DNA from: a virus
Lineage: Duplodnaviria; Heunggongvirae; Uroviricota; Caudoviricetes
Direction: 5' to 3' (one strand)
Length of the DNA: 12,989 bases
Virus record (IMG/VR): IMGVR_UViG_2671180609_000015
Position 1 is the first letter of the stretch, and every line of letters starts with the position of its first letter. Positions 9,001 to 12,989 of the stretch are shown here, one piece after another. Made by a program: the position numbers.

Positions 9001-12000
9001 TGCTGACCCTGAAAAGGCACGGGCTTTATTACTGGAACAGCGCGACGGTGATGAAGCACTGGCGATAAAGCAACAGACAGATCCGGTTATTGAGTTTTGC
9101 CAGTTCCTGAATTTTCTGGAGGAAGCGCGCGGCCTGATGATGGGTGGCGGTGGCGATTCCGTGAAGTACACGACCAGAAACAGCCTTTACCGCGTCTATC
9201 TGGCGTTTATGGCATACGCAGGAAGAAGCAAGCCGCTAAACGTGGCTGATTTCAGCAAGGCCATGAAGCCAGCGGCGAAAGTTTACGGACATGAATATAT
9301 TACGCGAAAAGTTAAGGGAGTAACGCAGACCAACGCAATTACAACGGATGATTGTGACGCGTTTTTATAATTTTTTGTAAAAGCCCTCTACCCCATCTAC
9401 CTGAATGAAATAAACGCATATTATTCAACATGATAAGTGGGTAGAGGGATAGGTAGAAGGCTAATAAAACCCCTCTACCCCCTCTACCATGATTAAGGTC
9501 GTTTGTGAGGGGCGGGTAGAGGATGGGTAGAGGGCCACGAAAAGTCCTCTACCCATCTGAAAGCCGCGCCATTACTGACCTGAAAGATGATTAGGTAGAA
9601 GAGGTAGAGGAGGTGCACCACAACCTAAAACTTTTTAAACGAGGGGGGTAAAAATAAATGTGCATACATCAAAATCACTTAACAAACATGCCGACCGAAA
9701 ACATGAATCAGGGGCGACAAATGACCAAAATGCGCAGAGACAGAACACAGCAAAAATATAAAGCGTTAGACATGACAGAGCTTTCCCTAAAGGTGGCAAT
9801 CAAAGTTATAGACCGCCACACACGGGAAGGATACGCGAAGGAGAATCCCGAACTAATAAGCGCATTCATGACAACGGCAGCTGCAAACTTTGCCACGCTG
9901 ACAGAACGGGAGATTGCCGAAGCGGAACAGGTAACAACCATCAACGTTAAAACCGGAGAGGTGGAATCATGACAGCACAGATAGCGGCTTACGGGCGGCT
10001 GGTGGCTGACCCACAGTTAAAGACCACCAGCAAGGGCACACAAATGACGATGGCGAGTATGGCTGTCCCCCTGCCGTGCAGCCAGGCAGATGACGGAACG
10101 GCTACGATGTGGTTATCCGTCCTGGCGTTTGGCAGACAGGCCGACGCACTGGCAAAACACCGCAAAGGCGAGCTGGTGAGCGTGGCGGGTAACATGCAGG
10201 TAAGCCAGTGGACAGGCCAGAACGGCGAAACGCGGCAGGGCTGGCAGGTTATCGCAGACAGCGTAATCAGTGCGAGAACGGCGCGACCGGGCGGCAAAAA
10301 AGGCCAGCAGGGGCAGGCTACTGACGCACTGAACAGGGCAAAACAACAGGCGGGGAATGATGATCCGTACGGGGATAACATACCGTTTTAAGCAACGAGT
10401 GACAGAAGCCGGAGAAATCCGGCTTTTTTGTAGGTACTCCTGGTGGGGGTGGCCTGTCCACGGGGCGGAGGGGCGCGGAAAAAGGCGCATTTTTTGATTT
10501 TTATGGCACCATCACCACCACTATAAGCTATTGATATGTTGAGAAATAAAAATTTTTAGTGTCGAATCAGGTTGTTTTTTGTTCATCACCGGAACGTTCC
10601 CGAAAACATTTACAAAAAACAGGCGCAAAAAAAGCGCCCCCGATTGCTGTTACCGGAGGCGCTTTTACACGACAAAGGAGTTTTTATCGCCAGGATGACG
10701 AGTCTTAATACTGCTTCAATGGCAAAAATGCGTCAATAACTTTGCCTTTCTGAGAATAATCAGAAAAAACATAATCTGATTTTCAGGTAGAAAATGATTT
10801 ATCTATTACTTTTATCGATCAATAATGATGCCCGTTAATCAAAACGGAGGCGGATTTATGCCAGAGAACAACACCAGAAAGCCGGATAAAAGTGCCACGG
10901 TACACATAGACGCCGGAACTATGGAGAAGATCGAACGCTATCAGCAGTTCATCAAAGATAATCACCCGGGTATGCCAGTGCCCACGAAAGGACAAATCAC
11001 ACGCAGCGCGGTTGAATACTGGTACAGGGCAACGTTAGGAGCCTGGCTATGAAAACATGGTTTTCCATTAAGGCTATGGCAGATGTTGTACATGTGCGCA
11101 TTTATGACGAGATCGGCGGGTACGGTGTAAAGGCATCGGCACTTACTGACGAGATCAACGCGTGCGGTAATGTGTCTGAAATCCATCTTCGCATCCATTC
11201 ACCTGGTGGCGACATCTTTGAAGGGCTGGCTATCTATAACGCCCTGAAAAATCATCCGGCAAAGAAAATTGTACACATTGAAGGCATGGCGGCTTCTATG
11301 GCCTCGTTTATTGCCATGTGTGGCGATCACATCGTTATGCCTGAAAACGCGATGATGATGATACATGCCCCCCGTGGTGTTACTGCCGGAGTGTCGGGCG
11401 ACGTTCGCCGCTTTGCTGACCTGATGGACAAGCTGGGCGACACGATGGCGGAAACCTACGCCGGAAGAACGGGCAGGAGCAAACAGGAAATCACCGCCAT
11501 GATGGAGGCGGAAACCTGGATGGATGGCAATGAGTGTAAGGCTAACGGCTTCGCAGATGAGGTTATAGCCGCGATTACAGCAATGGCCCGAATTGAATCA
11601 AAACGAATCGGAGATTTTTCAAATATGCCGGAAAAAATTAAAAGCATGATCAGCCAGAAAACTACCAGTGGCGAACAGGAACGACTTAACGGCATCCGTG
11701 AATTGTTTGGCACGTTCAACGGAAGATATAACGACCTGGCTATAAGTTGTCTTGCTGATTCAGAATGTAGCGTTGAGAATGCACGCGAACGCCTTTTACT
11801 CGCTATGGGTAAAGAATCAACGCCAACAAACAAAACCACCCCCGCAAATCTTTACTACGCGTACACGGATAACGGCAACATAACCGGCGATGCAATGCGC
11901 CAGGGGCTTAATGCGCGTCTTGGTCACGAACGGGCCGAACGCGGTAATCCTTACGCCATGATGAGCCTTTTCGATATGGCACAGGCATCATTAACCCATC

Positions 12001-12989
12001 GTGGTATAAGCACGGGCAGCTACGGCACACGCTCGCAGATAGTAAACGCGGCATTCACCCACAGCAGCAGCGATTTTACCGATATTCTTGCTGGTGGCGC
12101 TGAAAAATCAGTGCTTGCAGGCTGGGAGCACAGCGGCGAAACATTCCGCCAGTGGACGAAAAAAGGTTCCCTTTCAAACTTCCGGGAAGCCCGCCGCGTT
12201 GGTATGAATGGCTTCTCAACGTTAAACAAAGTGCCGGAAGGGGCAGAATATAAATACATCACCACCAGCGATCGCGGTGAACCCATCGCGCTGGCTACTT
12301 ACGGGAATATTTTCAGCATTACCCGCCAGGCGATAATCAATGATGACCTTGATCAGTTATCAACGGTGCCAATGGCTATGGGCCGTGCTGCATCAAGAAC
12401 GGTGGGAAATCTGGTTAATCTGGTGCTTACAGGCAACGTAAAACTTTCTGACGGAATAGCGCTGTTTGACAAAAAACACAGCAACCTGATTGAAGCAGGA
12501 CTGACAACACCGGGACTTAGTGCAGCACGTCACCTGATGCGCACACAGAAGGACAAAAATGGCGAAGTGCTGAATATTGCGCCTAAATTCCTTTTAGTTC
12601 CGGCAGCACTGGAAGATCGCGCGTTGCAGATGATTAACTCAACCGCACCTTTCGGGGCTGATAAAAACAGCGGGATCTTTAACCCGTATCACAAGCTACT
12701 TGATATCATCGTCGATCCCCGCCTTGATGATATCAGCGAAAAACAATGGTACATGCTTTCCGCACAGGGAACGGACACAATCGAGGTGGCTTATCTTGAT
12801 GGCAGTGACGAGCCTTACCTTGAACAGCAGGAAGGTTTTATCGTTGACGGCGTGGCCTGGAAAGTCCGTATTGATGCAGGTGTGGCAGCTCTGGATTATC
12901 GCGGTATGGTCAAATCAGGCGGGACAGATTCACTATGACAACAAGGCGGCACCAGCCGCCTTTTTTGCGGGTCCTCCTGGTGGGGTGGG

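Follow-up and report, generated by a model that had tools for sequence, protein, structure and literature searches.

A predicted protease-linker-capsid polyprotein encoded by one gene of a helper-embedded phage satellite

This work describes a single gene in IMG/VR virus record IMGVR_UViG_2671180609_000015, a 12,989-nucleotide stretch of DNA from a member of the Caudoviricetes (the whole of this stretch is referred to here as the window). The gene is a single ATG-to-stop open reading frame (ORF) at exactly 11049..12938 on the plus strand, for which the ORF list and translation give a product of 629 amino acids (aa). Within this one product, a prohead protease of the ClpP type is followed by a scaffold-like linker and then by a major capsid protein, and the gene itself lies in the late zone of a small phage satellite embedded in a helper prophage. 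The parts of the gene are as follows (AF2, AlphaFold2; pLDDT, predicted local distance difference test).

11049..12938, plus strand: complete gene for a protease/scaffold-like linker/capsid polyprotein, 629 aa (ORF list and translation)
11049..11588, plus strand: ClpP-fold serine protease domain, residues ~1-180
11295-11297, plus strand: codon of the catalytic Ser83, in motif GMAASMAS
11364-11366, plus strand: codon of His106, in motif MMMIHAP
11511-11513, plus strand: codon of the acidic residue Glu155, counterpart of ClpP Asp185
11589..11879, plus strand: scaffold-like helical linker, residues ~181-277 (AF2 secondary structure and pLDDT, alignment A1, spacer lengths)
11880..12935, plus strand: HK97-fold major capsid protein domain of the Mu gpT-like/Phage_capsid_4 type, residues ~278-629

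Two Pfam domains share the reading frame: CLP_protease at residues 42-174 (E 5.6e-33) and Phage_capsid_4 at residues 331-623 (E 1.8e-54, spanning profile positions 7-262 of 262), with Mu-like gpT as an additional, weaker match. The E-values for both halves are far beyond chance. The whole protein scores 890.6 bits against NCBIfam model NF045540 (scaf_prot_MCP1; curated cutoff of 475), a family named ClpP-like prohead protease/major capsid protein fusion protein, and 202 bits against NF045542, "head maturation protease, ClpP-related" (cutoff of 120). It also matches PHROG 133 (E 2.3e-281) and is 100% identical to RefSeq protein WP_000860403.1, which bears the fusion-protein name. Judged by its sequence, the ORF is thus a member of the named NF045540 head-assembly polyprotein family. 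All of the sequence and fold traits tested for membership were found, among them an N-terminal ClpP-related head maturation protease domain with catalytic Ser and His and a C-terminal HK97-fold capsid domain in frame with it; the genomic position beside a portal gene was not. Identity as a cellular ClpP was considered and rejected, as the TIGR00493 equivalog model gives 63.3 bits against a cutoff of 308.6, whereas NF045542 passes.

A preliminary description of this DNA, made from the sequence alone, had proposed a fusion of a ClpP-type protease and the major capsid protein in one gene at 11049-12938, and the ORF and the Pfam domains bear this out. Both motifs that it quoted are present (GMAASMAS, residues 79-86; MMMIHAP, residues 102-108), and it chose the catalytic serine, Ser83, correctly. 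A local alignment to Escherichia coli ClpP pairs Ser111 with Ser83, His136 with His106, and Asp185 with Glu155. Of 126 relatives, 125 retain Ser83 and His106, and 118 have Glu or Asp at position 155.

The structure model, built by AF2 from a 126-sequence alignment of diverse relatives, has a mean pLDDT of 90.9, falls below 50 only at residues 264-275, and matches the ClpP and HK97 folds. It supersedes an earlier AlphaFold run on a shallow 34-sequence alignment, which had covered the protease half only and left the capsid half at a pLDDT of <50. The preliminary description had named a noncapsid fold in the C-terminal domain as an outcome that would count against it; the domain is predicted to have a capsid fold, and its view of protease, scaffold-like linker, and capsid as one polypeptide is supported by the curated family models, the structure model, and the fold matches. 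Within the linker, a very short spacer (residues 193-212) precedes a confidently folded helical unit (~208-255), in which C234 and C240 are invariant in alignment A1 (34 sequences). The unit is followed by a disordered hinge at residues 264-275, which may be the likeliest region for maturation cleavage and is put forward as a candidate site.

The fused form is widespread. The gene was found at at least 80% coverage in 143 of the 144 complete E. coli genomes carrying it, and its protein has 5707 matches at E ≤ 1e-30 among 1.84 billion cluster representatives. Among the 50%-identity cluster representatives, the best 150 are nearly all 617-795 aa long, with both halves matched. An assembly frameshift concealing two separate genes, which the preliminary description had named as a possible refutation, is therefore not what these genomes and representatives show. 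Full-length matches at ~51% identity include Shiga toxin (Stx)-converting phages, VT1-Sakai, mEp460, and cdtI, in which the fusion gene adjoins the portal gene. Matches to the capsid half include Fels-1, Pseudomonas phage F10, Stenotrophomonas phage S1, the Rhodobacter RcC cluster, and Shewanella phage 1/44. Several of the capsid-half matches are already annotated as a capsid-protease fusion, and phage genome announcements routinely use the term "Major capsid and protease fusion protein" for such genes. The fusion architecture is therefore already known, and the fused gene itself is nothing new. A megablast search of the gene against the phage collection gave no match, and a protein-level search was needed; the gene is thus not a recent copy of the gene of any sequenced phage.

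To read beyond the end of the window, we used NZ_AP026092.1 (referred to here as L001), the best E. coli match, at 95% identity and with an identical fusion gene. The surrounding features are listed below; those from the integrase to the single-stranded DNA-binding protein (SSB) come from PHROG and Pfam scans and the RefSeq annotation of L001.

154-2380: lysis cassette of the helper
2442..2607, plus strand: helper region upstream of terS (small terminase gene), template of both cos-like copies in the satellite (blastn, alignment A3)
2638-3114: DUF1441-type small terminase of the helper
3111..4118, plus strand: N-terminal fragment, 335 aa, of the gpA-type large terminase (terL) of the helper, interrupted by the satellite (PHROG 15, Pfam GpA_ATPase)
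4110..4116, plus strand: attL core TTGGATG (junction sequences, reconstruction)
4280-5518, plus strand: integrase
5511-5735, plus strand: AlpA/helix-turn-helix (HTH)-like protein
5795-6376, plus strand: Bro-N protein
7326-7625, plus strand: DUF4222 protein
7622-9370, plus strand: D5_N/DUF5906 primase
9658-9972, plus strand: 104-aa ORF
9969-10391, plus strand: SSB
10426..10592, plus strand: cos-like copy 1, after a hairpin and T-run, ~89% identical over 167 bp to the helper region (blastn, alignment A3)
10825..11052, plus strand: 75-aa ORF whose stop overlaps the fusion-gene start (ATGA); PHROG 4934, E 1.8e-51, no known function
12963..12989, plus strand: start of cos-like copy 2, after the fusion-gene stop and a hairpin with a T-run; continues at L001 26086-26189
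L001 26319-26600: 93-aa ORF, always after the fusion gene, no family match
L001 26966-28096: C-terminal terL fragment of the helper
L001 26971-26977: attR core TTGGATG (junction sequences, reconstruction)
L001 28306-29808: portal gene of the helper

The order in L001 is the terL N-terminal fragment, integrase, AlpA-like gene, Bro-N gene, primase, SSB, fusion gene, 93-aa ORF, terL C-terminal fragment, portal, and the helper's own fusion gene. Reconstruction of the junctions gives an element of 10.24 kb with TTGGATG at both ends. When rejoined, the terL flanks are 100% identical over 500 bp to uninterrupted E. coli terL genes (417 records at at least 99%) and thus form a perfect empty site. The element is co-oriented with terL of its helper, a lambdoid prophage, and its layout is that of Gram-negative phage-inducible chromosomal islands (PICIs) and helper-embedded PICIs (HE-PICIs): the integrase and an AlpA-type gene at the left, followed by Bro, replication (primase and SSB), and late zones, within a size range of 10-20 kb. 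Its integration is likewise of the HE-PICI kind: it sits co-oriented in a prophage late gene, has a short att identity block, and its empty site exists intact in other genomes. From this organization, we classify the element as an ~10.2-kb PICI-type satellite of the helper-embedded type. The fusion gene lies in its late zone, after SSB and the 75-aa ORF, and the portal gene lies outside the element, in the helper. The satellite location and the helper paralogue of the fusion gene were not seen in the preliminary description.

Published HE-PICIs have Integration, Bro, Replication, and Late zones and lie co-oriented in the cognate of a lambda late gene (Tommasini, Mageeney and Williams 2023, PMC10111431). 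Like the element described here, they are ~10 kb long and have four zones, a lambda A cognate as target, a short att block, and a late gene restored upon precise excision. They differ in that the published A-gene sites are Terminase_1-family genes, whereas the site here is a gpA-type terL, and in that the founding example carries a lambda-E-type capsid gene, whereas this element carries the protease-capsid fusion (PMC10111431). The att core TTGGATG is absent from the attL/attR files of PMC10111431, and since the listed A-gene sites are in Terminase_1-family genes, the gpA-type terL insertion site appears to be uncatalogued. A second HE-PICI of the same configuration occupies terL of a different prophage in NZ_AP045176.1 (L010). 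The DNA of the His motif at 11355-11366, ATGATGATACAT (codons M-M-I-H106), is one base off 'atgatgatccat'. That sequence is the att identity block published for HE-PICIs of the C:CLP_protease:110 class, whose insertion point is the catalytic His codon of the fusion-gene family (PMC10111431). The capsid gene carried by this satellite therefore comes close to being a target of other satellites.

Several smaller observations concern the remainder of the window. The AlpA assignment is weak (HTH_17, E 0.005; PHROG 66, E 1.7e-7). A 255-aa ORF with a GTG start at 6333-7100 overlaps the end of the Bro-N gene and has a family match (PHROG 6196, transcriptional repressor) over its last ~90 residues only, so that the true gene is likely to be far shorter. 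Part of the difference between the window and its best genome match (91% coverage) falls in this Bro-zone stretch. In the helper lysis cassette, a 186-aa ORF at 445-1005 (PHROG 1085, no function assigned) separates the holin from the endolysin. A search with Rfam at gathering thresholds gave no RNA family in the window, and hence no C4/isrK-type immunity RNA was detected.

The fusion gene is bracketed by two satellite cos-like copies, ~2.5 kb apart. Copy 2 is 100% identical to the helper region over the 27 bp within the window, and in L001 it is 87% identical over 103 bp and 97% over the first 69 bp. A stretch of the helper region at 2442..2607, GGGCGGGCGGCG, resembles lambda cosN. Another satellite, EcCICFT073, is reported to have two cos sites (PMC6739421), and by analogy with it and from the similarity to the helper region, the satellite copies are putative packaging sites. 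The terminator scan did not list the two plus-strand hairpins, which are visible by eye. For HE-PICIs, helper late transcription has been proposed to read into the embedded satellite (PMC10111431); here, it probably reads through the terL fragment into the satellite, and expression of the fusion gene may depend on it.

The helper's own fusion gene, ~3.7 kb further on in L001, encodes 659 aa. The satellite and helper proteins are 52% identical over their full length (protease, 52%; linker, 51%; capsid, 57%), and synonymous sites between the two genes are saturated. Where it could be computed, the ratio of nonsynonymous to synonymous substitution rates (dN/dS) is 0.09-0.24 between satellite and helper; it is 0.17-0.25 between this satellite and a second satellite clade and, for the whole gene with small counts, 0.10-0.23 between close satellite copies. 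Across the protease, linker, and capsid parts, it spans 0.09-0.28 wherever computable, and all three parts are under purifying selection. One of the 144 genomes with the gene holds a decayed or truncated copy: in L010, the fusion gene at 13028-14034 has lost an internal part and appears in the annotation as two fragments. The same fused gene is the usual head gene of the helper prophage and of lambdoid and other phages of 40-60 kb (among them Stx phages, mEp460, Fels-1, and Pseudomonas phage F10), which does not fit the earlier view of the fusion as a compact solution suited to a small element. Because helper and phages share it, the satellite more likely captured or inherited the gene in already fused form.

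The fusion gene also occurs, between its small upstream ORF and the 93-aa ORF, in satellites at tRNA-Ile and cspD/clpS sites. The integrase at the cspD/clpS site is 22% identical to the one here, that at the tRNA-Ile site is alignable over a short stretch only, and the replication proteins differ among the satellites at terL, tRNA-Ile, and cspD/clpS. As it is shared across satellites with different integrases and replication proteins, the gene is part of a mosaic late module retained by satellites. The suggestion that it is a diagnostic marker for the family thus holds weakly: it marks a late-gene module, but not one element family, given the unrelated integrases. The 75-aa ORF stands upstream of the fusion gene in other satellites (98% identical in locus L002, 38% in L004), and the RefSeq annotation of L001 lacks it. 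The 93-aa ORF is 83-85% identical in L002 and L004. A 637-aa clade of the fusion protein, 64% identical to the 629-aa form, is also satellite-borne; in this clade, a TerS-like DUF1441 gene (its product 56% identical to the helper TerS) stands between the fusion gene and the 93-aa ORF. The 93-aa ORF, just beyond the window end, could encode a packaging-redirection factor.

This satellite copy differs from phage copies in the spacer after the protease. Phage copies carry an Ala/Pro/Thr-rich spacer of 30-60 aa, whereas the M193-R212 segment here has 20 residues, the second shortest of 126 relatives (median, ~60; maximum, 138). Near-complete loss of the Ala/Pro-rich spacer was found in all of the satellite or small-element clades examined (the 629-aa, 637-aa, P0243, and P0245 clades), and in each of the four spacer-short clades with inspectable context (L001-L004, L008, and L009), the gene belongs to a small element that has no portal upstream of it. 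The sample is small, and the association of spacer loss with satellite carriage is a lead rather than a rule. One of these loci, L008, is a metagenome contig of 10.6 kb in which a 50%-identical spacer-short fusion gene (2040-3983) neighbors an integrase, a TMP_2 tape-measure-like gene, IncFII RepA, a faint ParA-type (CbiA) match, and ProQ, with no portal; this is an odd plasmid-like or satellite-like gene mix.

Set against known systems, the gene has its closest counterparts in the NF045540/PHROG 133 copies of lambdoid phages (Stx-converting phages, VT1-Sakai, mEp460, cdtI, and Fels-1), which have the same three-part architecture at 51-52% identity, the same catalytic residues, and the same Mu gpT-like capsid domain. 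In those phages, the gene comes after the portal gene as part of a full head module and has the longer spacer, whereas no portal lies beside the satellite copy. In HK97 (gp4 and gp5, the latter with delta domain and capsid) and in lambda (C/Nu3/E), protease, scaffold, and capsid belong to one assembly pathway, as is proposed here. The HK97 protease is of the herpesvirus type and is separately encoded. Lambda uses separate genes with a nested C/Nu3 arrangement, whereas the gene structure here predicts a ClpP-fold protease covalently joined to every capsid subunit. For the HK97 pathway, a phage D3 capsid preprint describes protease, scaffold function, and capsid as acting together, with the scaffold part removed by proteolysis.

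Among satellites, SaPIbov5 (Ccm), EcCICFT073 (c1499), and PmCI172 likewise encode a homologue of the helper major capsid protein (PMC6092414). Ccm is reported to make small capsids and c1499 to be dispensable for interference, and that paper describes neither as protease-fused. The capsid-forming PICIs (cf-PICIs, e.g., EcCIEDL933) share with this element an own capsid protein and maturation protease. They encode these in separate genes, together with a portal, head-tail connectors, HNH, TerS, and TerL, whereas the element here has the fused gene and two small ORFs. Identity as a cf-PICI was rejected: from attL to attR, only the fusion gene and the 93-aa ORF are annotated after the replication genes. 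Since the satellite thus lacks portal, terminase, and tail genes, its polyprotein must act with helper parts.

We consider it probable that the gene encodes a three-part polyprotein and that the satellite copy works with helper parts, most plausibly to make shells for satellite DNA. By analogy with HK97, the capsid domains would assemble into a procapsid shell enclosing the protease and linker. Roughly the first 260-300 residues would next be removed by the protease, probably through a cut in or near the hinge at 264-275; the N-terminal fragments would leave, and the shell would mature upon DNA packaging. Self-processing of the 629-aa polyprotein is in this way predicted from its family. The most plausible task of the satellite polyprotein would be to build shells for satellite DNA that has been cut at the cos-like sites on either side of the gene. 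Four points weigh against this proposal. The third catalytic residue is Glu, versus Asp in ClpP; the promoter scan gave no sigma-70-like site just upstream of the fusion gene; and literature searches did not find a mature N terminus for any member of the fusion family. In addition, deletion of the lambda-E-type capsid homologue of EcCICFT073 left interference unrelieved, and the DNA packaged was of phage size (PMC6092414), so a satellite capsid gene can be dispensable. Our ranking of roles places shells for satellite DNA, possibly of another size, first, interference with the helper capsid second, and dispensable cargo third. Nothing computed separates the shell-building role from the interference role.

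Interference would mean that the diverged polyprotein co-assembles or competes with the helper's 52%-identical one and spoils helper capsids. The helper does have a paralogue of the same architecture, the satellite gene is under purifying selection, and PICIs commonly disturb helper capsid assembly, with SaPIbov5 Ccm reported to block phage reproduction (cited in PMC6092414). A pure poison, however, would need no intact protease, yet the catalytic set is conserved and the dN/dS of the protease stays within 0.09-0.28. We regard this role on its own as unlikely, and as Ccm shows, it and the productive formation of small capsids are not exclusive.

Equally doubtful, in our estimate, is a captured helper late gene that is merely carried along and dispensable for satellite transfer, after the manner of the EcCICFT073 capsid homologue. 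Apart from that deletion result (PMC6092414), the duplicated cos-like flanks would fit a history of capture or recombination. Such cargo is difficult to reconcile with a gene that has only 52% identity to the helper and saturated synonymous sites yet is intact, with dN/dS of ~0.1-0.25. At least two deep satellite clades retain it (the 629-aa and 637-aa forms, 64% identical), and decay was found in one copy in 144 genomes. This divergence, low dN/dS, retention in deep clades, and rare decay point to long-term selection rather than recent hitch-hiking.

A further alternative concerns the product rather than its role. Lambda makes Nu3 inside gene C, and an internal in-frame start might likewise yield a shorter scaffold-plus-capsid product here, so that not every capsid subunit would carry a protease. 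All 34 sequences of alignment A1 share Met193 and Met200, and there is a GGAG 12 nt upstream of codon 193. This motif is weak and stands at a long distance from the codon, the equivalent segment has no initial Met in more distant relatives, and the conservation of Met193-Pro194 could equally be due to protein function; the site is a weak candidate, and we give this arrangement little likelihood. Finally, the view that the fusion is an artefact, either two genes joined by a sequencing frameshift or a cellular ClpP mistaken for one of phage origin, retains practically no probability and is refuted by the genome, protein, and family-model evidence, as the gene reaches at least 80% coverage in 143 independent complete genomes, the fused form recurs in thousands of proteins and many isolated phages, TIGR00493 fails (63 versus 308.6 bits) and NF045542 passes, and no support for an artefact was found.

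Returning to shells built for satellite DNA with helper parts, we offer a more specific version tentatively, as a rather unlikely possibility. The spacer-short polyprotein may be a one-gene capsid determinant that makes satellite-specific, possibly smaller shells with the helper's portal, terminase, and tails. If so, the element would occupy a middle position, as classical PICIs remodel the capsids of the helper and cf-PICIs encode an entire head, and near-complete loss of the Ala/Pro-rich spacer would be part of a size or specificity switch. A helper-embedded satellite that keeps a deeply diverged, intact copy of its helper's complete protease-scaffold-capsid polyprotein could bear on the reason for which capsid genes are present in so many Gram-negative PICIs.

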